DNA from: a virus
DNA: 64,000 nucleotides
IMG/VR virus record: IMGVR_UViG_3300030617_000007
Span: 1,656 to 65,655 of that record
Direction: 5' to 3' (one strand)
Both the position numbers and the translations under genes were made by a program. Under the pieces are notes generated by a model. It was not told the DNA's origin, did not search any database, and was given only the letters and a program-made list of their open reading frames with translations. Shown here piece by piece: positions 1-60,202 of the stretch; the first letter of the stretch is position 1, and every line of letters starts with the position of its first letter.

Positions 1-493
1 CGGTGTCCAGATTATTCGCATCCTCCAGCCGAACCGTATCCAGGGCGGTGGGATGGTGTCAACCGATAACGTAGACGGCTCGTCACAGATCGCGAAGGAC
101 TGCGATTGCATGTTGACGCTGCACCGCCCACGTATCGCGAACAACAATACCGCCGACGTCATGCAGTTCGACAGCGGCGCGCCGATGGAAGAAGAGGCGA
201 CGTTCTCTGATCGTATGCTTCTGACCGTAGGCCTGAGCCGCTATAGCTCTGGTGGCCGGTGTGAACTCCACATGAACGGAGCTACCTCGACCGTAAGTGA
301 GATGTCGGAGCATCAGAAGAAAGTCATTCAGGCAATGGCCAACCACAACGTCGGCCACGCTGCACAGATACAAAACCAGAACCTCGCCGGTCTCAAAAAG
401 GCCGTAGAGAAAACCGCACCAGCTTCCGTCGACGCAACTGCATCTGAGACGATAGCTGAGGAACCGAAAGAGACTGAGGAGATCGGCATCTAA
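1..493 (+). CDS. DnaB-like replicative helicase, C-terminal part (gene begins before the window)
   Basis: Frame is open from base 2: GVQIIRILQPNR...DNVDGSSQIAKDCDCMLTLHR, resembling the SF4 helicase motifs (ixxLaQlnR; dlrgSgsIeqDaD). Confidence 0.6.
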   Translation, partial: GVQIIRILQPNRIQGGGMVSTDNVDGSSQIAKDCDCMLTLHRPRIANNNTADVMQFDSGAPMEEEATFSDRMLLTVGLSRYSSGGRCELHMNGATSTVSEMSEHQKKVIQAMANHNVGHAAQIQNQNLAGLKKAVEKTAPASVDATASETIAEEPKETEEIGI

Positions 494-3257: not shown

Positions 3258-4350
3258 CGTAATAGTCAACACACAGCTCGCCGTTCAGAGCACTACATCC
3301 AAGGCCGACAAGCTGAAGCAGCTCAAGACGGTGGCGGCGGCACTAAACGCGCAGTTCAAAACAACCAACAGTATCGTACGGCTCAAAGACCATGTAGGTC
3401 TGCCTATGCCCTCAATTCCGACTGGCATTGCGACCTTAGACCTTGACGCCATCGGCGTCGGAGGATTCCCTCGCGGTCGCATCATCGAGCTATTCGGTCC
3501 TGAGTCAGGTGGGAAGACTACCTTAGCGTTGGAGACGGTAGCCGAGGAGCAGCGGACTGGAGCTCTGTGCGCCTATGTGGACGCAGAGCACGCGCTGGAC
3601 CCGAACTACATGGAAGCCCTGGGCGTCAACGTCGAGGAGCTGGTTATCAGTCAACCTGATAGCGGCGAGCAGGCCCTTGAGACCGTAGAGGCGCTGGTAG
3701 AATCCGGTACTGTTACCCTCATTGTAGTCGACTCCGTAGCCGCCCTGGTCCCGCAGGCCGAACTAGACGGGGATATGGGCGACTCCCACATGGGCTTGCA
3801 GGCCCGTATGATGTCCCAGGCGATGCGAAAGCTTCGTGGGAAATGCTCTCTGCACGGTGTAACTGTCATATTTATCAACCAGATAAGGGAGAAGATTGGC
3901 GTGATGTACGGTAACCCAGAGACGACGCCGGGCGGTCGCGCACTGAAGTTCTACGCATCGGTACGTATCGACGTTCGTCGTGGTCTCAGCGAGACGACTG
4001 ACGGGGCCAAGAGTCCTCTCATCAAGGTCGGTGATACAATCATCGGACACCGTATGAGGCTCAAGATCGTCAAGAACAAAGTAGGCGCACCCGCTAAAGA
4101 GACCACCGTGGACCTGATCTACGGTAAGGGTATCGACCGGCGTACTGACTTCATTACCTTCGCAAAGGACATCGGCGCAATCGAGCAGGCTGGCGCGTGG
4201 TTCAAGTTCGAGGGTGAGAACATAGGTCAGGGCTTCCTGAAGGCTATCGACGCCGTCAAGGACAACCCTGCACTTGAACAGAAGATCAGGTTCAAGGTAG
4301 CTGAGCTTCTGGCCGCACGTAGGAAGAAGGTTCAAGAGGCACTGAAATAG
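3160..4350 (+). CDS. recA: RecA recombinase
   Basis: GRIIELFGPESGGKTT Walker A, VDSVAALVP, GLQARMMSQAMRKL, FINQIREKIGVMYGNPETTPGGRALKFYASVR. Confidence 0.97.
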   Translation: MSEALAALKSAVKTPQVPSTGKSTGSTSATSTNVIVNTQLAVQSTTSKADKLKQLKTVAAALNAQFKTTNSIVRLKDHVGLPMPSIPTGIATLDLDAIGVGGFPRGRIIELFGPESGGKTTLALETVAEEQRTGALCAYVDAEHALDPNYMEALGVNVEELVISQPDSGEQALETVEALVESGTVTLIVVDSVAALVPQAELDGDMGDSHMGLQARMMSQAMRKLRGKCSLHGVTVIFINQIREKIGVMYGNPETTPGGRALKFYASVRIDVRRGLSETTDGAKSPLIKVGDTIIGHRMRLKIVKNKVGAPAKETTVDLIYGKGIDRRTDFITFAKDIGAIEQAGAWFKFEGENIGQGFLKAIDAVKDNPALEQKIRFKVAELLAARRKKVQEALK

Positions 4351-12267: not shown

Positions 12268-12627
12268 TTAGAACGGGACATCATCGTCGTTTATGTCTTG
12301 ACCAATTGCTGCGGCTTCTGGGTTCTTATTATTATTACTTTCAATCTCGATTTGTAAAGCAGCCAGAGCCCTCCAGGCTGCTTTCGTAGAGTGAAGATGG
12401 CCGTCGATATCCACTGTTCCGGCCTCTAGTAGGTGCCTCATGAGGGTATCGTGGTGGTCGCTAGACTTATCACGTGACCAGTGTAAAGGTTGCCCTGGAT
12501 TATGCTGTAAATTACCTTGGTACGAAAGCGATGCTACGGCAGCTAATGCATCTGGAAAATACTTCATCAATCCTGAGTAAAGCGGTATAGCCTTTCGAGC
12601 TGCCGCTTCAGTTGGTAGGTGTGGCAT
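12268..12627 (-). CDS. dATP/dGTP diphosphohydrolase N-terminal domain (DUF5664-like) protein
   Basis: RKAIPLYSG...YFPDALAAVA...QHNPGQPLHW...LMRHL...AAWRALAAL; ends DDDVPF. Confidence 0.7.
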   Translation of the reverse strand: MPHLPTEAAARKAIPLYSGLMKYFPDALAAVASLSYQGNLQHNPGQPLHWSRDKSSDHHDTLMRHLLEAGTVDIDGHLHSTKAAWRALAALQIEIESNNNKNPEAAAIGQDINDDDVPF

Positions 12628-13352: not shown

Positions 13353-14747
13353 TTAGTCTGCGTTATAGAAGGCCATGTTTATCAGGCCCAGGATGTTGTT
13401 CCATGCATACGACTCAGCCGTCTTGATGTTGCCGACGTAGTTATTCGCAGCATGCCACGCATCGGGTTCGCACAGCGCCGGTAACGTGCGTACTCGTACG
13501 CCATGATATTCCTGTACCATCGTCTGATGGATATGTCCAGTGTGACACTCGCGGAACGTAGTGTCTGCCCACATCTGCTTCTCTTCTTGCGCCATTGTCA
13601 GCGGGTAGTCCGGCTTCTTACCGGTGTTGCCGTGTGTGAACATCAGCATCACTTCGCCCCATTGGAAATACTTTCTTTCCTTTGGTTCGCAGTTGACTTC
13701 GACGTCTTCGTAACCGTGGAAGCGCATCTTGAGAGAATCAGCTAGGTGCCATGCGCTCAGCTTATCGTGGTTGCCTGGGCAAGACATAACGTAGACCGGA
13801 GCGATCTCTCGAAGCTGATTGATTACGTCGATGACCTTATTGCGTAGCTTGACGAAGGTCTTGTAGTACCTGCTATCGTTATCCTGTCGCGTGCCGCCTG
13901 TCGTGTTGCCCTCAAGCGTATCTGCGTTCTGCATATCATTGCCAACAACGAATAGAACCTTGTCGAACTTTATATGAGCGTTACGTGCGATCAATGCATC
14001 TACTGCGTCTTGGAAGACATCGAGAGCGATATTTGTATCGTAGTCCTTGTATCCGGTCTCGCGGTTCCAAGCTAACTTGCCTGCGTGAAGATCCGGGATA
14101 TTAATCTCTAGCAGGTTACCTGTCAGTCCACCGAGGTGCTTTACTGCGCGAACCTTTACAGCGTTTAGATTAGAAAGCGCCGCGTCACGCATTGCTGCGA
14201 TTTCGTTCTTGGCAAACTCCTTCGACTTGTTGCGGACGAGGGTAGCCTTCAACCGGTAGAGCGGGGTGATGATCGGGTCAGTAGTCTCGCGAGACCAGTT
14301 ACCACTCTCACCGACAGCCTTCGGAAAGCCTGCCATCTCCCATTTGGTACATTCCCAACGTTCAACCTCCCAGATATCGTGATCAACCTCACAGAACGCC
14401 AACAGCTCGGGGAGCGTATGGATACGTGTCTTGGGGAAGCTTACGTTGATCTTGTCCTGGCCGACGTGTTCGACTGTCTCGCCGAGCACTGCCTTCTGCT
14501 CCGAAGCTTGTGGCTCAGGTGCATCGGGTCCGACGTATGGTGTCTGCTTGTTATCTGTCGTTGTCTTCTTTGTTCTGAGTCCGGCTACGTAAAGGAACTC
14601 TCTGAAATTTCGGAAGGTCTTGCGCCACTCGCGTTCACTGAAGCTTCCATGCTTGCGGTAGAACTCGCGGCTCAAAAGACCGGGGTGTTTCTGGTCGAGC
14701 TGCTGGACATCTGCGATTAGTTTTGCTCGAAGTGTTTCACCTGCCAT
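13353..14747 (-). CDS. Metallophosphoesterase-fold protein with N-terminal extension
   Basis: PDLHAG, VGND, PGNHD, FTHG, HTGHIH motifs. Confidence 0.8.
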   Translation of the reverse strand: MAGETLRAKLIADVQQLDQKHPGLLSREFYRKHGSFSEREWRKTFRNFREFLYVAGLRTKKTTTDNKQTPYVGPDAPEPQASEQKAVLGETVEHVGQDKINVSFPKTRIHTLPELLAFCEVDHDIWEVERWECTKWEMAGFPKAVGESGNWSRETTDPIITPLYRLKATLVRNKSKEFAKNEIAAMRDAALSNLNAVKVRAVKHLGGLTGNLLEINIPDLHAGKLAWNRETGYKDYDTNIALDVFQDAVDALIARNAHIKFDKVLFVVGNDMQNADTLEGNTTGGTRQDNDSRYYKTFVKLRNKVIDVINQLREIAPVYVMSCPGNHDKLSAWHLADSLKMRFHGYEDVEVNCEPKERKYFQWGEVMLMFTHGNTGKKPDYPLTMAQEEKQMWADTTFRECHTGHIHQTMVQEYHGVRVRTLPALCEPDAWHAANNYVGNIKTAESYAWNNILGLINMAFYNAD

Positions 14748-19000: not shown

Positions 19001-19575
19001 GTCGCAGAGGCGATTCGACCATTACCGGCTGCTCGGTTCTCTTTGTACTGCGCCTCGATCTGCTTGAGGGGCTGCATGATGATGTTCTCAGCCGCCTTGT
19101 AAAGCGGGTGATCTTTATCTGACATGCCCATGTTGACGAGCTTGGAAGCTTCTTCAGCCGCCGTTGCCCAGTCACCAGTCTGCGCCGCCGCTACCGCTTT
19201 GTGGTAGTAGTCGATGGGACGCGTGACTACCGACCCAAGGGTACTAGCTACGCCTTCTACGGCAGGTTTGATAGCACCTTCATTGAGGCGGTTTAGATTG
19301 TGGTTGACAAAGGTAGCTGCCGTACCGAGTGCGGAGCTGCCGAGTAAAGTATTATCCGGCTGAGACGTCGCTGGTGTAGAAGTGTCCGCAGCCTGAGTAG
19401 CTTGTGGAGCTGCTACGATGCTGCTACCGTCAGGAGGAGGGGGAATGGAGCCCGGCTGTGTATCGCCGGGCTGGGTGTCTGCGCTCGGAGCGGTGCTAGG
19501 ATTTGCTGCGGCCACGATATTGCTGCCATCGGGCGGCGGTGGAATTGCACCGTTCATTGCGTTTGGATCAGCCAT
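16003..19575 (-). CDS. Large internal virion (ejection) protein with C-terminal HExxH motif
   Basis: 1190 aa, A/G/Q-rich, in the ejection-protein position after the tail genes; GHELTHVWQ near the C-terminus. Confidence 0.6.
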   Translation of the reverse strand: MADPNAMNGAIPPPPDGSNIVAAANPSTAPSADTQPGDTQPGSIPPPPDGSSIVAAPQATQAADTSTPATSQPDNTLLGSSALGTAATFVNHNLNRLNEGAIKPAVEGVASTLGSVVTRPIDYYHKAVAAAQTGDWATAAEEASKLVNMGMSDKDHPLYKAAENIIMQPLKQIEAQYKENRAAGNGRIASATNIPNIIQGGKDVLNNASNDIGKGDYKGAAADVVSPVLGSHAVGAIPLVGGAIQNIAPTIDQDIRKGDWGAVSGDAEAIAANILPFLKGGKAAEAGEAADVPGGGGGGAGEGIPPAPDEAVAPEGPSGPGGGGPTDQSSLTRAAQTREELNQVSQSAPSAEQTQNALQGKVQQAFQPQLDANNALNETANRNIDATAQSQVATAQAEQAQHEFNQIEAEREVDKEAALSPGDESITAAAKKVADDSNEATHDKYQAASDKMLNESKGASVDYENGAIHKVVQDKLGTVKGEGPLTKAVSDDLPGSARANKTLNNLSKIIGPEEVDAEGVVKDAEGNELTPEQYQEQLSAHGIETDPETEIQGTDMMDQPAQKTQVTMADVMKMYKKIGERQRSTGWVTSEDLADQGIYRDLKKAAIETIGQIAEKTGNPDLINTAEQMNSDYRTEIRKFENPAVKALRGGKLSDVDAYLTGKQSSPGNIAAMKETLGSHWPDFQTASLRRLIADSVNPDGSINYKGAVSKLARLKADVRTDMYGDGGSSIMNALNRAASSADLAEEAGGRVQAAQDAAAQAKAGVGKTVSGRSADINKQISDIIGNGDITELVKDPARRTGLQEAVGPNGMEQLTDMAIQQKVAEFSNATNKQGQLVKGAFNAEKFMNWYQEFANHPEAADALFKPTPEAAARYDKLIHDTQNVASVQKLVENGVIPLALGTAGGLVAGPWGILIGGLLRGGDAAQALKTGSSAAEWLANHPATWKGVELAGKVADAVKASPKGQAAAAKAATLKSTLSNTMSSLGGKPKKLTALTGDGSDITSTAPVLPPEVQAATNDLPVQTVKGAAINDPNNRGGGVPIANVDQGAGNNTIEVNRPQDYGAPQQGHELTHVWQNNLPPSVQAKIPDDASGTAAFDISDADKLRAQGKTLTDLPREKQATIVQKYIEDPKKNANLKPWINDMTRTALSGTMPTSPNATRLNTATRPPGPPDASVAGAYPKEAAKKKK

Positions 19576-19590
19576 TATGTTCCCTTTGCT

Positions 19591-22524
19591 TTATTGCTTT
19601 GGTGGAGCGGGTTGTCCGGTCTTCACGTCGACCCACTGCTTGCCGTCCCAACCGAATGCGCCGCTTGAGCTCATTTGTGTAAAGGTTGGAAGCTTAGGTG
19701 CCGGAGCTGATGCTGTCTGACCGTTGGTCTGACCTGACATCTGCTGATTACCAGCCTGTCCGCCGTTAGTCTGTTTGATGTTGTCGAGCTGACCGCGACC
19801 GTACCATGTACCGTACTTACTGGCATTCTCACGCTGCTGAGCTGCTGCGTCGAAGTCCTGACCATCGTGAGCATCGCGGTATGCCTTGTGGGCTTGCGGT
19901 GTCATTAAGTCTTGGATCGGTGTCTTTGAGGATGGCATCACGTTTGCGAGACGACCGTCGACAGAGCTGTACTTCGCTGTCAGAAGGTCCATAGCCGTCT
20001 TTGCCATCTCCGCCTGCTTGCTCGGAGTAGCTGCGAACCAGCCACCGTTGCCATGACCGAACATCTCCTTCGCATCTTCCTTGTCCTTGTCGGTCAGGGA
20101 AGCTCCACCATTCTTGTACGCTGCTTCAACTTCTGATGCAGAGCGCGTGATGGCTTGGTTGTACAGGTTGACGTTCGCTTTGTGCTCTGGTGTTCCATAG
20201 TTGCTCTCGAAAGAGTTCAACAGAGGATTCGTCGCACGGTAGCCTTCCTTCGTCACAGTGTTGTAGAAATCGCCCAAGTGCTGAATAGCGGTATTGGCCG
20301 CGTCGAGTGGTTTGGTCGACTGTAAACTCTTCTGTGTATCGTAGTAATTGTTCGCGGTCGCCTGATCGTAGTGCGGGAAGGCGGCGCGGACTTCTGCTGC
20401 TAGGTCGATGGTCTGCTGACGTGACAGACCCATTGTCGTGACTTTCTGCGCGCCTTCTGCGATTGCTCGGAGAAGATCGGCGTGAGCTTGACCTTGAGTG
20501 TTTACCACGGATGCGAGATAGTTCTGACGAATGCCGCTACCATCAGGCTGTTCGTTGGCTGATTCGCCGATAAGCTGCTGCTGGTGCGCAGTATCCGCGT
20601 CGGTCTTCGCTTTGATTCGAGCTGCCTCTTGTTTGTATGCCGTGTCTGACTTGATCTGCTCTTCCTGCTGATCCTGAGTAACCTTTTGTGCAGTCTTTGC
20701 CTGGGCCTGCTCTTGGGTCGTTATCAAATCCATCTTGCGAATCTGATTCGTGCCACCATAGAGAGCGAGAATCTTACCGGCTGATGTTGGGTCTTTGGTA
20801 CCAAGGGCACCAACAGCCTTTTCGTAGTTGTCACTCGAAGCATTCAAAAACGGCTGGAACTTTTGCAAAGCATCCAGCAATGTGGGATCGGCCTTTACAG
20901 CCGCCTTCAAGTCCGGTGCCTGTACAGGGTTCTCGGTGGGGATGGGAGCAGTAACTCCAGCAGCCTTACGTGCGTCCGCTGCGTACTGTGTCGCGTCGTT
21001 CTTATCGTACTTCGTGAAGAAGTCTTCAGGCGACATGTTTGGATTGCGCGAATAGTCAAGCTGCAACTGGTTAAGCAGTGCGGCGTGACCCTCATCGGGC
21101 GAATCGTATACGCGGAACCCAGTCTGTCCGGCAGGAAGGTTTACGTTGTCGATCTTACCTGTCCATGACTTGTCTGCTACGAGGTTGCCTGGGTTATTGT
21201 TTCGTGCGTTGCGATCCGTTGGCTTGCTACCTTCGTGCTGGGCGATGAAGTCGGCCAACTTGTCGAAGTTAGGCTTGCCGTCGCTATCCTGTCCGAAGAG
21301 ACTGAACACGGACTTAGGGCTAGCAGTTGTGCCGTCACCATTGTCGCCATGCGCGTCGTGAGTGTTCAGCTTATCGTAGAAGTCATTCAGGTTCGACTGG
21401 CTGAGCTGATACGTTGCAAGCTTGGACTTGATACCGAGACCCATCGACATGTTCATCAAAAGGTCTTGAGGAAGCTTTGTCGGTTTGCCGTCGCCATCGG
21501 AGAAGCCTGCCATACCGAGGTCCGCTGCAAGCTTCTTGTCAGCATCGGTCAAGAGGCCGCTGGACTTGAAGTTCGGATCAACAATCGCGTACTGAATGTC
21601 CCACTGTGGCTTGCCGTTTGAATCCACGGTCTGCTCACCGGCATGAGGTGCGCCGGGCGGATTAACTCGTGCGACGACGCGATACGGAATCGCGCTGTCT
21701 TGGGTGACATGATACTTGGCGAGGTCGCTGCCGTTGACGACACCCTTGATGACCTCTGGGTGGTCCTTCATTAACTGCTCGACTTGTGGGGCAAACTGTC
21801 CGACGTAGTTAGTATTCGTGTTGTAGTCGGCGCGTCCCGCTGCCTGCGCATTATTGTACAGCTTCATGTTGGTTTCGAGAACCTGGGCATGACGCTGGAA
21901 ATCCTGATTGGCCTGCTGATCCTGCTGCTGATTCTTCTGTTGGACTGCCTGGGCCTGCTGCATCCCAAACTGACCGCCAGCCGCAGCCGCGCGCCCAAGG
22001 TTACCTGGGCCGTTCTGTACACCAAAGCCAGCCAATGCTCCGCCAAGTGCTTCGAAGGCAAGCGCAAGACCGAGCTGCTTGGTTGTAACCGGCTGTTTGG
22101 TACGAGTCGCCACGCCAGTATTCGGGTCGATGGTCGTCTTGTACTGAGCTCCACCAGTCAGTGCTTCAGCGAAGGAGCTAAAGCGCGAAGCCTGCTGAAT
22201 CTTTGGATCAACAGGCTGAGACGCTGGGTTACCAGCCGTACCACTTGCATTCTCCACAGACTGCTTGAGGTTGGGTTGACCGGGCTGCTGGCCGTTAGGT
22301 TGCTGGGCCTGATCTTGCTGAGACGGACCTGCTGGCTGCGTCGGACCGTTGCCCTGATCCGGGGTTGTAGCAGAGGCATCGGGCGTGGACGTACCGTTGT
22401 CGGTAGAATTGCCTGACATCGGAGTGGTACCGGTGCTAGAAGTGTCGGCACCGTTTACCTGTGAGTCTGGTGTAACATCCGATCCGATAGGAGCCGCGCT
22501 GCTATTTGAAGTATCTTCTGCCAT
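19591..22524 (-). CDS. Internal virion (ejection) protein with lysozyme-like domain
   Basis: 977 aa; IAQHEG...RNNNPGNL...GFRVYDSPDEGHAAL. Confidence 0.6.
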   Translation of the reverse strand: MAEDTSNSSAAPIGSDVTPDSQVNGADTSSTGTTPMSGNSTDNGTSTPDASATTPDQGNGPTQPAGPSQQDQAQQPNGQQPGQPNLKQSVENASGTAGNPASQPVDPKIQQASRFSSFAEALTGGAQYKTTIDPNTGVATRTKQPVTTKQLGLALAFEALGGALAGFGVQNGPGNLGRAAAAGGQFGMQQAQAVQQKNQQQDQQANQDFQRHAQVLETNMKLYNNAQAAGRADYNTNTNYVGQFAPQVEQLMKDHPEVIKGVVNGSDLAKYHVTQDSAIPYRVVARVNPPGAPHAGEQTVDSNGKPQWDIQYAIVDPNFKSSGLLTDADKKLAADLGMAGFSDGDGKPTKLPQDLLMNMSMGLGIKSKLATYQLSQSNLNDFYDKLNTHDAHGDNGDGTTASPKSVFSLFGQDSDGKPNFDKLADFIAQHEGSKPTDRNARNNNPGNLVADKSWTGKIDNVNLPAGQTGFRVYDSPDEGHAALLNQLQLDYSRNPNMSPEDFFTKYDKNDATQYAADARKAAGVTAPIPTENPVQAPDLKAAVKADPTLLDALQKFQPFLNASSDNYEKAVGALGTKDPTSAGKILALYGGTNQIRKMDLITTQEQAQAKTAQKVTQDQQEEQIKSDTAYKQEAARIKAKTDADTAHQQQLIGESANEQPDGSGIRQNYLASVVNTQGQAHADLLRAIAEGAQKVTTMGLSRQQTIDLAAEVRAAFPHYDQATANNYYDTQKSLQSTKPLDAANTAIQHLGDFYNTVTKEGYRATNPLLNSFESNYGTPEHKANVNLYNQAITRSASEVEAAYKNGGASLTDKDKEDAKEMFGHGNGGWFAATPSKQAEMAKTAMDLLTAKYSSVDGRLANVMPSSKTPIQDLMTPQAHKAYRDAHDGQDFDAAAQQRENASKYGTWYGRGQLDNIKQTNGGQAGNQQMSGQTNGQTASAPAPKLPTFTQMSSSGAFGWDGKQWVDVKTGQPAPPKQ

Positions 22525-44781: not shown

Positions 44782-46830
44782 TTAGCCGAATAGACCGGCG
44801 TCGGACAGTGGGTCTTTATCGCCACCGTCGTCGTCTCTGAACAACCGATTGTTCTGCACTTGGTAGGCAGTGGACGGGTTGTCGTCGTTTTGAATTGCGT
44901 TGGCATTCAGATGAGCGTACTTGCCAACTCCATAGATCATGTCGTGCATCGCTTTCGACTTAGCGTCGGCGGCAAAGCTCATGTCTGTGTTGTCGACGCG
45001 TTTTCCCATCTCTGCCCAACCCTCGAATACATCTACGAGGATGGAGAATGCAGATACGATGTCGTCGTGCTTATCTTCTGAGGTGCCGGTGAACTGTGTG
45101 AGCTCGTTCAGAATCTCATCGTATCCTTCGCAGGAGTTGAGGAGTTTCAAACGGTCGTCACCGAGCAGGCGGATGAAAGGCTTGGCCTTCATCTTCTTCG
45201 AGTTGGCTTTGCTTCCTAGTCCCAGGGAAACATATTCCACAGGAATGCTTATCTGAAGCTTGTCCATCTCGCGCTTGAGTTCGCGGCCCATCCACTTCAC
45301 GCCGACCGACTCCTCGATAGCGATTCGCTTAGGTTTCCACTTGGCAGCGGTGGCGGCGAGTACGGCAGGAAGCTCCACGTCGTTGAATCGTCCGCGTACC
45401 ATGTTCAGCACGTAGAAGCGTCCGCCATAGATCAGAGCGGTAACGGCAACCGTGTAGTCTGCCCAACTCTTCGTAGAGTACGCGGTGTCGACGGCCATCA
45501 CGACTACTCCCTGATGAGGGAGGTCATTGTGCTTGATCGTCGCGCCTACTAGTAGCTCACGAGGAATCTTTACCTTGTTGATCTTGCGCGGATTGTTGAG
45601 ATACTTGATTGCGAAGTTGCCTTTACCTGCGTCCTGCTTCTCATACTTCTTGAGAAGTTCATACGGTAGGCGTGAGGGGAACCAAAGCTCCAGGTCATCT
45701 TTCTTCGCGATGTCATCAGTCTTACCGGCCTTGATCGCCTCGGGCGTTAGCCACCAGCATGCACGCAGGTAAGTCTTTACCATGACGGCGCTCTCAAACC
45801 GGCCACTCTCGACAGAACCGTGAATGTTCCCTTGAAGGCCCATCTCTTCCGCGAAAGTTTCTTCCTGTTTGATAGTTATGCCGTAGAAGTCATACTCGTC
45901 GTACCACGTACCGATTACGTCAAAGAAACCGTAAGGGTGCATCATAGCTTTGTTGATGCTGATTTGGTCGTTGATCTTCGAGAGACGTTCTGGTGTCTGA
46001 CTGTTTTCGTTTGTTACCACGTCGTCAAGCTTCAGGATTCCGAAGTGCTGACCGACGAGGGACTGCTCGATAGACGCGGCTTCTACGGTCGACTCTTTGT
46101 CGTTACCGCCAGCAGGCGTCTGAAATTTGAATTGGCTCCCGTCGTTAGGCTGAATGCAGTGCTCTGGGAAGAGCGTCTGAAACAAACTGGGTGTCCACTC
46201 ATTAGTTTCTGCGTTAAGCATCATGCGAGGGACGAAGCCAGCTTTACCTGCTTTGCCGGGGGCGTTCACATCCTCTTCGAGAGTGAAGTGCTGCTTCAAC
46301 TCACCTACAAAGTCTCCGGCCAGTTTGTACACACCGGTTAGGATTAGGATGGTAACAGCGGGGAAACATATTACCCATTGCACACAATCTGCGATGTCGA
46401 TACTTGACTTGAATCCGCCGCGTGGTACGAGCAGCAATCGTTCCTTCAAATCAGTGTACTGGTTAGCAAACATCTCGAAAGTAGCAAAGGTCGGATTCTT
46501 CTGCGTGAAGAATTTGTTGCAAATGTCTTCGTGCGTTTTGATCGTGACTTGGTTGTATTTTTCCAAGACATGACAAAGGAAGTAAAGATTGGTTTGGCAA
46601 AGAAAACGGAGTTTTAAAAACTCAGTCTGATTCTCGGGGGTTACCGGCTCACCATTCTTCTCAAGCAAGTTCGTCCACGATTGCATTGCCTTCACCTGTT
46701 GTGCAGGAGGCAAACGCAGAAACGAGACCTGGGCCATTGCCAGAATCTCGTCTTGTGTTTTATCGCGGAATTGGTAGTTCGGATCTAGGTAAGACGACGC
46801 AGCAAGATCTCTGAGTTTAGCGAGATGCAT
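44782..46830 (-). CDS. terL: Terminase large subunit
   Basis: LLLVPRGGFKSS (Walker A), LKLDDVV (Walker B), IGTWY, AVDTAYS, HDDIVSA nuclease motifs. Confidence 0.9.
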   Translation of the reverse strand: MHLAKLRDLAASSYLDPNYQFRDKTQDEILAMAQVSFLRLPPAQQVKAMQSWTNLLEKNGEPVTPENQTEFLKLRFLCQTNLYFLCHVLEKYNQVTIKTHEDICNKFFTQKNPTFATFEMFANQYTDLKERLLLVPRGGFKSSIDIADCVQWVICFPAVTILILTGVYKLAGDFVGELKQHFTLEEDVNAPGKAGKAGFVPRMMLNAETNEWTPSLFQTLFPEHCIQPNDGSQFKFQTPAGGNDKESTVEAASIEQSLVGQHFGILKLDDVVTNENSQTPERLSKINDQISINKAMMHPYGFFDVIGTWYDEYDFYGITIKQEETFAEEMGLQGNIHGSVESGRFESAVMVKTYLRACWWLTPEAIKAGKTDDIAKKDDLELWFPSRLPYELLKKYEKQDAGKGNFAIKYLNNPRKINKVKIPRELLVGATIKHNDLPHQGVVVMAVDTAYSTKSWADYTVAVTALIYGGRFYVLNMVRGRFNDVELPAVLAATAAKWKPKRIAIEESVGVKWMGRELKREMDKLQISIPVEYVSLGLGSKANSKKMKAKPFIRLLGDDRLKLLNSCEGYDEILNELTQFTGTSEDKHDDIVSAFSILVDVFEGWAEMGKRVDNTDMSFAADAKSKAMHDMIYGVGKYAHLNANAIQNDDNPSTAYQVQNNRLFRDDDGGDKDPLSDAGLFG

Positions 46831-49908: not shown

Positions 49909-50227
49909 TCTCGTTCCTCTTGGCCCGTAGCGTATCGAGGAAGCTGTTGATAGCTGCCTGCGCCTCCAGGTCCACATCGTTAGGTCGGGCTACACCGTCG
50001 TCACCGCTTGCGGTGTCTGTCCAGCGTATTCCTTTGCCATCGATAAAAGAGAGGATGATCTTTGTAAGAAGGTCCGTCTCGGCTTCGGTCTCCGCATCAA
50101 GCAGTTGGGAGGCGAATGAGCCGAGCAGCGCACGATTCGGAGAAAGTTTTTCGTTATTCAGAATCTTCGTCAGAATCCGCTGGTGTTCCTTTTTTCTTTT
50201 CATAGATAATTTCGTAAGGTAATGCAC
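49883..50227 (-). CDS. Hypothetical protein
   Basis: Tiled ORF. Confidence 0.45.
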   Translation of the reverse strand: MHYLTKLSMKRKKEHQRILTKILNNEKLSPNRALLGSFASQLLDAETEAETDLLTKIILSFIDGKGIRWTDTASGDDGVARPNDVDLEAQAAINSFLDTLRAKRNENVAAANPA

Positions 50228-50612
50228 TATCCATCGACCAAAACCGCGCCCGAGTCTTGCGCCCTTGCGTGGAAACTATCCCACAGATGCGGTGCATATC
50301 TCGAATGCAAATATTGTAATCGGTGCCTGAAAGCACGGCGTCCCATTCGGGATGGCTGTGAATAAAGCCGATAATGCTCAACCCACGCTCCTCTGCGTCT
50401 AGTCGAACTTTTTCAAAATCAATTGTGTACCACTGAACGTGGCTTGGTGATTGGTCTGCGTATCGCGGTGGATAAGCGAAACTGTCGATCCGTACTGAAT
50501 GCGGACCAAGTACTTCGCCCACCAGGAATGCTTGAATCTCGTTTTTTGAATCACGAGAAAGCCGTCTGAAATGGTCGAGTTGGCCCTTCTTGAGCCGAAC
50601 CTTATTTCGCAT
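50154..50612 (-). CDS. JAB/MPN+ metalloprotease domain protein
   Basis: NEIQAFLVG (catalytic Glu) and GFIHSHPEWDAVLSGTD (HxH-x7-S-x2-D). Confidence 0.8.
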   Translation of the reverse strand: MRNKVRLKKGQLDHFRRLSRDSKNEIQAFLVGEVLGPHSVRIDSFAYPPRYADQSPSHVQWYTIDFEKVRLDAEERGLSIIGFIHSHPEWDAVLSGTDYNICIRDMHRICGIVSTQGRKTRARFWSMDSALPYEIIYEKKKGTPADSDEDSE

Positions 50613-50713
50613 GGGGTTGGGTCTCTCGTTATTAGGGGCCGGATATTGCCGGGTATTTCCGGCATGTCTGCTACGGTTAGGTGTTGAAATCAACACGGCA
50701 GAGCATTTGTAAA

Positions 50714-58559: not shown

Positions 58560-59243
58560 GTGGCTTATAAAGGTATAGGAGAATCGGTAGCGGCTTTGAA
58601 GAAGGTCACAGGTACCGACTTAGATCACCTAAAAGCCACGCCTATTTCTCTCGAAGAGTTCAAAGCTAAACAGGCCGCTAACCAGCATCTTGTAACTCCG
58701 GTGTTCAAGCCTAAGTCACCACAATGGATACAACCGGGGTCGTACAAATCCAGCAAGCCACAAATGTTCATTCTTCCGAAAAAGGAAGCTCCACCAAAAG
58801 AACATATCGGAGATTGGGAAAGAGCAATGCCACCTGAAGGAACCGCAGTAGACTACATCCTCGACGGCATCACGACAAAGCTAGGGGTATCTACGCCGCC
58901 CAAGCTCGTGCATGAGTGCCATCCCGGTCTGATGGATCGTGTATCGATGGCGACGAACGATAACGTTCAACTTCAGAATCGTTCCATGCACTATGGCTCT
59001 TCGTTCGACTACCGACTATACTGCGACCGCTGCAAGCAAACTCAGGTTCTTCTCACGACGCAAGTCAATCACGTCGAAGACCCCGACGACGCTATAGTAG
59101 CCTTCTGCATGGCTCACCAGCACAACGGAAAAGCAAATAACGCGTTGAAGGTGCTGTCGGCCTTTGCAAACGTATCGTATTCGGAGGCGGGTTCGTTGGA
59201 GCCAAAAGCTACGCGTAAATTCCGCGATGATGGAGATGAATGA
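58560..59243 (+). CDS. Hypothetical protein (Zn motif) ending RKFRDDGDE
   Basis: CDRC...FCMAHQH; SD AGG. Confidence 0.55.
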   Translation: MAYKGIGESVAALKKVTGTDLDHLKATPISLEEFKAKQAANQHLVTPVFKPKSPQWIQPGSYKSSKPQMFILPKKEAPPKEHIGDWERAMPPEGTAVDYILDGITTKLGVSTPPKLVHECHPGLMDRVSMATNDNVQLQNRSMHYGSSFDYRLYCDRCKQTQVLLTTQVNHVEDPDDAIVAFCMAHQHNGKANNALKVLSAFANVSYSEAGSLEPKATRKFRDDGDE

Positions 59244-59508
59244 TATCCTCTCTTATGAGCCTCTTGAACCAGGGTTTCTCACCGTTGCCGAACGAGCCAA
59301 AAGAGCCCGAGTCAGTGAAGCAAACGCTAGGGCCAAGTTCGTTGGAGAAGCTAGAACCTACCTCAGTCTCCAAACTAGCATCTACGACTTGCCCATCCAT
59401 GGGCTTGTACGTCCCGTTGGATATAAATTCAGACCCTTTATGGAAGCCGTGGCCGAGCAGTCCAATAAATCCAAACTACGTTTTAGACTATTCCGAGATG
59501 AAGACTAA
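59230..59508 (+). CDS. Probable hypothetical protein in alternative frame, ending RLFRDED
   Basis: Frame is open 59164-59508 and ends in the same motif as both neighbours. Confidence 0.5.
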   Translation: MEMNDILSYEPLEPGFLTVAERAKRARVSEANARAKFVGEARTYLSLQTSIYDLPIHGLVRPVGYKFRPFMEAVAEQSNKSKLRFRLFRDED

Positions 59509-60202
59509 ACAAGAGCCTAAGAACTTAAATACCGATCCTACTACACCGCCGATCACCTTCGAGTACCGATGGAGTCTATGGGGAGGAGGGCCGTGTCTCA
59601 TTCAGGAAGACCTATGCTACGTATTCCCAGAAGCCACTACAGTAGAGGATTTGGTATCAAAACACTTGGCATATCTTCCACCTGGTAGGACACTCAAGGA
59701 CATGGCGTACGTCTCCGCAGTCATGCCGTACAAAAAGCAGTCAGAAGTCCCGAAGCTCCCGCCCGACGACACGCTCGTGGTTCCGGCCAAAACTTATAAG
59801 GGTGTTCTTTCCACCCCGAAATTTTCAGACCCTTCTCAGCAGATAGCTTCGGCGGCCAGCTACTACGAGCAGAAGATGGGGGGTAGCTATGCAAACCAGC
59901 AGGCCAATGCTAATGCGCTCTTTGGTCTTGGGTATGGACAATCAGGACTATCCAGTATCGGGGGTATTCCAGACAGCGTCATTCAGGCCGGACTAGAAGC
60001 TCAGGCTTATAAGAAATCCGTACCATCCATGCTCACGTACTCACCAAAGAAGATCACTCCTTTGGCGTCGCTAACTCCCGAGCAGATCAAAGCAATAAAG
60101 GACGGAGCGATGGATCATTTGCTTGACAAAGAGGATCAGGCTCCTGTAGAATTGGAAGTAGTAACAGTCCCAACGGGTAGAAAGTTTAGAGACGAGGACT
60201 AA
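59498..60202 (+). CDS. Hypothetical protein ending GRKFRDED (ORF track starts it at 59240)
   Basis: ATG 59498 overlaps the end of the preceding alternative-frame ORF. Confidence 0.55.
   Translation: MKTKQEPKNLNTDPTTPPITFEYRWSLWGGGPCLIQEDLCYVFPEATTVEDLVSKHLAYLPPGRTLKDMAYVSAVMPYKKQSEVPKLPPDDTLVVPAKTYKGVLSTPKFSDPSQQIASAASYYEQKMGGSYANQQANANALFGLGYGQSGLSSIGGIPDSVIQAGLEAQAYKKSVPSMLTYSPKKITPLASLTPEQIKAIKDGAMDHLLDKEDQAPVELEVVTVPTGRKFRDED

Follow-up and report, generated by a model that had tools for sequence, protein, structure and literature searches.

The stretch of DNA analysed here, hereafter the window, comprises 64,000 nucleotides of the IMG/VR virus record IMGVR_UViG_3300030617_000007 and corresponds to positions 21794-85793 of an 85,920-bp single-contig phage genome, G000. 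The large terminase, the portal and the head and tail genes are encoded on the minus strand of the window, and the plus strand carries a long replication and nucleotide-metabolism block with a family A DNA polymerase, a phosphoesterase, a nucleotidyltransferase, an exonuclease, RNA ligases, a helicase, a gp4-like primase-helicase and a recombinase. Three genes in this block, designated A, B and C, follow each other so closely that B is nested in another frame inside the 5′ part of C, and all three encode proteins that end in a similar short peptide, R-x-F-R followed by acidic residues, hereafter the tag. The further carriers of the tag in this phage are the large terminase and three small replication-module proteins outside the window. 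The tagged genes and the tags, with open reading frame abbreviated as ORF, are as follows.

58560..59243, plus strand: gene A, 227 residues, from the ORF list.
59214..59231, plus strand: tag of A, R-K-F-R-D-D, then G-D-E-stop, by direct reading and motif scan.
59227..59243, plus strand: triple overlap of 17 bases, with the end of A, the ATGs of B and the ATG of C.
59230..59508, plus strand: gene B, 90-93 residues depending on the start, nested within the 5′ part of C and read in the -1 frame.
59485..59502, plus strand: tag of B, R-L-F-R-D-E, then D-stop, by direct reading and motif scan.
59240..60202, plus strand: gene C, 320 residues, its first ~86 codons overlapping B and of low complexity.
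60179..60196, plus strand: tag of C, R-K-F-R-D-E, then D-stop, by direct reading.
44782..46830, minus strand: large terminase subunit, 682 residues, matching PHROG 38 over residues 42-612 (E 1e-44).
44830..44847, minus strand: tag of the terminase, R-L-F-R-D-D, 19-21 residues before the stop.
Genome 3694-3975: tagged protein of 93 residues, from the six-frame motif scan.
Genome 13586-14071: tagged protein of 161 residues, from the six-frame motif scan.
Genome 19569-20150: tagged protein of 193 residues, from the six-frame motif scan.

The nearest cultured relative of the phage is the Tunturiibacter phage Tunturi_3 (terminase identity 55%), a 97.6-kb podovirus of Acidobacteriota isolated from tundra soil (PMC11924767). 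The uncultured relatives, G001-G004, are IMG/VR genomes, and the related tagged phages, which come from peat and tundra, are probably Acidobacteriota phages.

A sequence-only reading of the locus had claimed a common C-terminal tag on three adjacent proteins, and all three termini are as it described them, with A ending in R-K-F-R-D-D-G-D-E-stop, the frame-1 ORF (B) in R-L-F-R-D-E-D-stop at 59508 and the ORF that ends at 60202 (C) in R-K-F-R-D-E-D-stop. The motif F-[RK]-D-[DE] occurs four times in a six-frame scan of the window, in A, B and C and near the end of the terminase, and seven times in the six-frame translation of the 85,920-bp genome, each time at the end of a long ORF. The recurrence clearly exceeds chance, since the seven copies of R-[KLF]-F-R-D-[DE] in the six frames of the whole genome compare with 0.021 expected from composition, and the probability is ~3.5e-11 that all seven would fall within the final 21 codons of open stretches that are 90 codons or longer. 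Over ~30 listed tags the consensus is G-R-[KRL]-F-R-[DE]-[DE], where the Gly before the first Arg is present in about half of the tags listed for this phage and its relatives. The codons vary freely: the Arg residues are encoded by CGT, CGC, CGA, CGG, AGA and AGG and the Phe by TTT or TTC, and the conserved object is therefore the peptide, on which selection acts. The six carriers other than the terminase belong to the early replication block, whose strand is opposite to that of the virion genes. The annotation covered part of the proteome (~45 proteins were scanned against families); in this phage and its relatives the carriers matched no Pfam or PHROG family and shared no domains, apart from a marginal match to DUF3150. 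That family was rejected as the identity of the carriers, as the match is weak and confined to one G002 carrier, and no literature on it was found. A search of the ESM Atlas was likewise uninformative about what the carriers are.

The tag is maintained across considerable divergence. The sequence-only reading had named loss of the tag in homologues as the outcome that would speak against it, and the tag is kept by all homologues that were found for A, B and C, whose identities are 26-68%. The motif search across related phages that it had proposed gives, besides the seven copies here, five to eight tagged proteins in each relative, with a carrier set that differs per genome: six carriers in G003, seven or eight in G002, and five in G004 together with an internal copy in a Cas4-like exonuclease. 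The neighbourhood of phosphoesterase, A and small tagged ORFs is syntenic among the relatives; for the tagged proteins upstream of the primase-helicase, no clear orthology was found between genomes. An IMG/VR-wide scan for G-R-K-F-R-[DE]-[DE] returned 80 matches, of which the near-terminal ones in long ORFs occur only in this clade, the remainder being internal or off-frame; by its sequence distribution, the tag is thus clade-restricted. No description of such a tag or of the nested gene was found in the literature.

Some further features of the relatives concern the tagged proteins themselves. In G004, the Cas4-like exonuclease (504 residues, L120:4181-5695, plus strand) carries its internal tag 77 residues before the end, followed by a Cys/Trp-rich extension; its orthologue in the present phage has an acidic E-E-I-A-I tail instead, which suggests an exchange of tails. 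Just upstream of its phosphoesterase, G002 has a tandem of three small paralogue-like proteins of 87-107 residues, each ending in a degenerate tag (the tandem proteins and the tag-cluster loci are at L017:7601-8424, plus strand, L012:6547-6972 and L017:9953-10321). A protein with the sequence pattern of an RlpA-like double-psi beta-barrel lies inside the tag cluster of both G002 and G003.

The cultured relative departs from the pattern. None of the protein tails of Tunturi_3 contains the canonical tag, but its terminase has R-H-F-R-V-D at the homologous place, the A homologue gp131 has R-K-I-R-L-D and the HNH endonuclease gp96 has R-K-F-H-L-E. The pattern R-x-[FI]-[RH]-[VL]-[DE] occurs three times in the Tunturi_3 proteome, always in tails, and never in the tails of the other genomes. 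Such a lineage-specific variant is the pattern expected from co-evolution with one reader, although it is suggestive only.

The large terminase is the one carrier identified by homology to a known family. Its R-L-F-R-D-D-D sits in the C-terminal tail, beyond the fold match over residues 42-612 and just upstream of a family-wide terminal D-P-L-x-D-A-G-L-F. The tag is kept in place in L004, L005, G001 and G003 (R-K-F-R-D-D-D) and in G004 (R-M-F-R-D-E); the G002/L003 and L006 terminases have unrelated residues there. The extreme C-terminus, D-P-x-x-D-x-x-L/F, is kept in every relative. The G002 large terminase (86586-88608, minus strand, L008/L021) is divided into two ORFs of 377 and 293 residues, 7 nt apart; the break may be genuine, or it may come from a frameshift or from an error in sequencing.

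In A, the tag belongs to the most conserved part of an otherwise divergent family. The five homologues are 26-54% identical with only 17 invariant columns, and these include R219, F221 and R222 of the tag and five Cys/His residues, a putative zinc site within a Cys/His domain (CxxC...CxxHxH, residues ~120-202). The AlphaFold 2 (AF2) model contains a small alpha/beta domain with a predicted local distance difference test score (pLDDT) of ~80, and the score falls below 50 for residues 205-227; the tail bearing the tag is accordingly modelled as disordered. A has no Pfam or PHROG match, and a fold search, with a best Z of 4.0, gave no convincing structural neighbour. The long form of C appears to be real because its start forms an ATGA overlap with the stop of A and because the protein aligns from residue 1 with P0002 (331 residues, about 41-43% identity). 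The last ten residues are identical in the C homologues P0002 and P0003, the latter being 68% identical to C. The AF2 model of C is uninformative (pLDDT 35).

The three genes meet in the seventeen-base overlap, where A ends in frame 0 with its stop at 59241-43, the B ATGs at 59227, 59230 and 59236 lie in frame 1, and the C ATG at 59240 lies in frame 2, with GGAG at 59232-35. Translation of A, B and C is probably coupled at this ATG cluster on the A stop, in which case the three tagged products would be made together.

The status of B had been left between a real gene, dual coding and a frameshift by the sequence-only reading, and the first two are borne out. B (59230/59236..59508) is wholly contained in C (59240..60202) save for its first codons. 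An exhaustive HMMER search of 1.84 billion representatives identified P0009, a 96-residue protein (E 2e-18) that is 56% identical to B over its full length and ends in R-L-F-R-D-E-T-stop; the start M-x-M-N-D is conserved as well. The alternative frame is thus conserved, which had been posed as a condition for the claim. Furthermore, P0009, taken from residue 5 to its end, and residues 1-94 of P0002 are codon-compatible in the -1 register for 93 codons in a row; at wrong offsets no run exceeds five, and the B/C pair of the window, used as a control, behaves in the same way. The first residues of P0009 are also compatible with the acidic end of the A homologue P0007, which is encoded on the same 17.4-kb contig as P0002. 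Because the ends of P0007, P0009 and P0002 are mutually codon-compatible, the relative would seem to have the same layout of A followed by B within C. In G003, a stand-alone tagged ORF of 90 residues directly follows the A homologue.

The open frame is not readily explained by the C protein. When C was kept and its codons were redrawn from the phage usage, the -1 frame was open for at least 88 codons in 0.17% of cases and the tag was at its place in 2.5%, both occurring together in 8.5e-5. Calibration on 305 real windows, ~1% of the comparable ones being open, indicated that the open-frame part of this estimate is ~2.6-fold too optimistic, which brings the joint probability of open frame and tag to ~3e-4. 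In the overlap B is 56% identical to its homologue and the C frame 41% (33/81), and synonymous recoding of P0009 produced 18.1±3.2 identical C-frame residues, reaching 33 in 0 of 20,000 trials; the comparison takes synonymous sites as saturated, which was assumed from the 41-53% protein identity. The C frame given the B protein is open in only 3.4% and 5.9% of recodings. Since the C-frame identity exceeds what the B protein imposes, both frames look selected; an inner ORF lies inside an outer one, and each is conserved beyond the constraint from the other in a diverged relative. The sequence comparisons hence support B as a real, conserved gene and the stretch as dual-coding, with B overprinted, as we envisage it, in the -1 frame on the 5′ part of C.

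An alternative that we consider improbable is that B is not expressed and that its off-frame tag is a remnant of the end of an ancestral gene, preserved by selection on C. Gene callers never called B in this genome, the codon model prefers the C frame from ~59400, and a relic-like orphan tag exists in G004. A relic, however, would hardly remain open and 56% identical over its full length where A is 53% and C 41% identical, nor be better conserved than the C frame that overlaps it; the composition of B is protein-like, with the GC content at first and second codon positions (GC1, GC2) matching that of the genome's genes, and an open frame with the tag, given the C protein, has a probability of ~1e-4 to 3e-4. 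Codon usage itself, which favours frame 1 (B) at 59160-59340 and frame 2 (C) from ~59400, was set aside as a frame call for 59240-59500, being ambiguous there, as expected for dual coding.

Two further proposals about the overlap fared less well. The ATG at 59498 does lie inside the tag codons of B, as had been noted, but its supposed role in restarting the downstream protein is doubtful: the bases of the B tag read D-Y-S-E-M-K in the C frame, D-Y-x-E-M-K is the only strongly conserved island of the C N-terminal extension, and Met87 of C is therefore conserved because of the B tag codons and need not be a start. Entry into B by a programmed -1 frameshift gained no support and is not needed. 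The heptamer G-GGT-TTC at 59272-59278 fits the slippery pattern, for which the chance expectation over 87 codons is ~30%, the fold downstream of it is not significant as a stimulatory structure (z -0.9), and both B and P0009 have their own conserved M-x-M start.

We propose that R-x-F-R-[DE]-[DE], a short linear motif specific to this clade, serves for docking to a single partner, an interpretation to which we give about an even chance. The tag, borne on flexible C-terminal tails and often preceded by Gly, would be a common handle for unrelated phage proteins, and a single partner protein, of phage or host origin, would recognise the six small early-block proteins and the large terminase. A docking signal fits because the tails are disordered, the carriers are unrelated, the peptide is under selection and one lineage has a variant. 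R-x-F-R is invariant where the A family diverges to 26-54% identity, and the tag need not be a free end, as it is internal in the terminase and in the G004 exonuclease.

Several observations weigh against this proposal. A comparison of gene content gave no convincing partner, as no phage gene was found that is present in the tag users but absent from Tunturi_3; neither a clamp-like nor an unfoldase gene is among the annotated proteins, although the annotation is partial. The variant pattern of Tunturi_3 counts the very matches, three in number, from which it was defined, and the acidic half of the tag doubles as the Shine-Dalgarno sequence or start of the next gene in several cases. The candidates for the partner include a core phage protein, such as the JAB/MPN protein, the portal or the small terminase, or else a host protein. 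Our guess is a DNA-associated hub linking replication to packaging, on the ground that the tag occurs both on the terminase and on proteins of the replication block. Several observations speak against the DNA polymerase alone as the partner, among them a second, T7-like class of tails in the same phage. In a wider and more tentative form of the docking proposal, which we think possible but somewhat less likely than that proposal itself, a private R-x-F-R-acidic address in this clade of large Acidobacteriota podoviruses would tie changing early proteins and the terminase to one hub, with tag and hub co-evolving, a gene overprinted so that both products carry the address, and the address serving as a second code beside the T7-like tails.

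The tag might instead be a processing or turnover signal for a protease, either the phage JAB/MPN protein cutting after Gly or a host AAA+ protease that sets the lifetime of early proteins. JAB-fold enzymes act on C-terminal tails, all five genomes have a conserved protein with the Prok-JAB domain, roughly half of the tags have a Gly just before their first Arg, and most carriers are early proteins. However, this Gly is not invariant, and cleavage of the terminase at its tag would take off the conserved tail at its end, through which podovirus terminases generally bind the portal. Known C-terminal degrons are moreover apolar, and the transfer-messenger RNA tag of this phage (ORF 57555..57650) ends in the classical apolar form. 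We therefore find a protease signal rather unlikely. The Prok-JAB/MPN protein (PF14464, E 8e-10) is encoded in the window at 50154..50696 on the minus strand, near transfer RNA genes upstream of the packaging operon, and its Tunturi_3 homologue is annotated as a minor tail protein.

A third possibility is that the tag docks proteins on the portal or the interior of the procapsid, which would lead to their packaging or set them in competition with the terminase for the portal. The terminase tag adjoins its terminal tail, and the HNH endonuclease of Tunturi_3, a member of a class of enzymes known to work with packaging machines, carries the variant. Capsid loading had been offered by the sequence-only reading as an example of what the tag could do, and it gained no specific support: six of the seven carriers belong to the early replication block, encoded opposite the virion genes, the terminase is neither packaged nor a virion component, and the G002/L003 and L006 terminases are without the tag while other G002 proteins keep it. 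Docking at the portal is in our view quite improbable, more so than the protease signal.

The remaining alternative is set at the level of nucleotides. The acidic codons of the tag are apt for starting a downstream gene, as GAG-GAN can give GAGGA and GAT-GAN can give ATG, and the GAGGA in the acidic codons of the C tag is likely the Shine-Dalgarno sequence of the next gene (ATG 60202). Because of this doubling, the acidic half is not purely a peptide signal and may serve two purposes, while the whole tag is a peptide signal. In G004, at ~21238-21424 (L120:1238-1424, plus strand), an orphan G-R-K-F-R-D-E-D has an in-frame stop 11 codons upstream, and its bases form the GGGAGG Shine-Dalgarno sequence and the ATG of a small gene starting M-K-I-I-L-L-L, whose product, as far as its sequence tells, looks like a secreted protein with a signal peptide; the orphan tag itself looks like the relic of a former gene end. 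That the recurring codons are translation-initiation cassettes for packed downstream genes, the peptide being incidental, is a reading that these cases invite, with four of the six terminal tags of this phage overlapping or abutting the next start and their codons supplying ATG or GAGGA, and with the non-ORF copy of G004 exactly on a Shine-Dalgarno sequence and ATG, yet it is largely refuted and very improbable, given that the invariant half, R-x-F-R, is encoded by many different codons, the terminase copies are internal with no downstream start, many tags of G002, G003 and G004 have neither an ATG nor a nearby start, and the other two terminal tags of this phage lie 24 and 42 nt from the next gene. 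The codon variety likewise rules out a DNA-level repeat as the main cause of the tag.

The docking motif, if correct, would be relevant beyond this locus. Short docking peptides organise the T4 and T7 replisomes and have been worked out in a few model phages, and here a different peptide tags ~5% of the genes in an uncultured phage from soil and in its relatives, of which Tunturi_3 is in culture. The partner, if found, would assign many function-unassigned proteins together to a single process and could reveal that replication-module proteins are physically linked to DNA packaging. The A/B/C locus is furthermore a comparatively supported case of dual coding and a test case for gene callers, which missed B.

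Among the known systems, the clients of the phage sliding clamp are a close parallel. The T4 clamp is a hub that also links replication to late functions. The clients of the T4 and RB69 clamp, gp45, dock through terminal peptides similar to the PIP box, all read by one hub (PMC3012046). As in the present phage, several different proteins there have a short terminal peptide. The peptides themselves differ: clamp-binding peptides follow Q-x-x-[LIM]-x-x-[FY]-[FY] or Q-L-[SD]-L-F, and the tag is composed of R-x-F-R and acidic residues, with a Gln or a hydrophobic pair in 0 of the ~30 tags. The carriers also differ from the T4 and RB69 clients in that they include the terminase and are mostly function-unassigned proteins. 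No clamp family was detected among the ~45 proteins scanned, a partial proteome, or in the Tunturi_3 annotation, and the annotated proteins of the phage include no clamp loader.

The replisome of T7 offers the second parallel. The T7 protein gp2.5, which binds single-stranded DNA (an SSB), docks by an acidic C-terminal tail. The gp4 helicase-primase does so too, its acidic C-terminal tail docking on basic patches of the DNA polymerase (PMC8472574). The present phage resembles T7 as a podovirus whose polymerase is of family A and whose primase-helicase is gp4-like, and in having shared C-terminal tails, but the T7 tails are purely acidic with an aromatic tip, and the tag, having two invariant Arg and usually an acidic end, does not qualify as a tail of that type. 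A second class of tails is present in the same genome, where the primase-helicase and the Cas4-like exonuclease both end in E-T-E-E-I-[GA]-I-stop:

Window 2..493 (gene at genome 20193-22286), plus strand: end of the primase-helicase, with the E-E-I-x-I-stop tail.
L001:7798-8709, plus strand: Cas4-like exonuclease, with the E-E-I-x-I-stop tail.

This tail, acidic with a hydrophobic tip as in the T7 type, co-varies between the two proteins, being G-E-I-[ST]-I in both proteins of G002 and E-I-[TP]-V in G001 and G003. The R-x-F-R tag is thus probably a second address, different from the T7-like tail. It is also distinct from the SSB C-terminal tip of the D-D-D-I-P-F type. The canonical ending of bacterial SSB tails, in the form D-D-D-V-P-F, is found on a 119-residue protein at 12268..12627 on the minus strand of the window; this protein, whose N-terminal domain is that of a dATP/dGTP diphosphohydrolase (PF18909, E 3.5e-8), is no SSB itself and may mimic the SSB docking tip. 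Degrons of the ssrA type have apolar last residues, and the tags end in D or E or in short polar extensions, with two copies internal. A different kind of tail, similar to a PEP-CTERM/exosortase sorting tail, is found in a 255-residue protein at genome 17-784, plus strand, where a hydrophobic stretch rich in Gly, Ala and Leu leads into a terminal R-R-R-F; no homologue of this protein was found in the relatives.

For the nested gene, the counterpart is the Rz/Rz1 pair of lambda, in which the inner gene is fully contained in the outer one, in another frame, and both are conserved. B is similarly nested in C in another frame, and participation of the two products in a joint process is presumed. 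B is confined to the low-complexity 5′ extension of C, however, and, unlike in Rz/Rz1, B, C and the upstream A all end in the same tag and a single ATG cluster serves the three frames. The reading of terminal peptides by a hub is known in principle from T4 and T7; for the motif and the nested gene, no earlier description was found.

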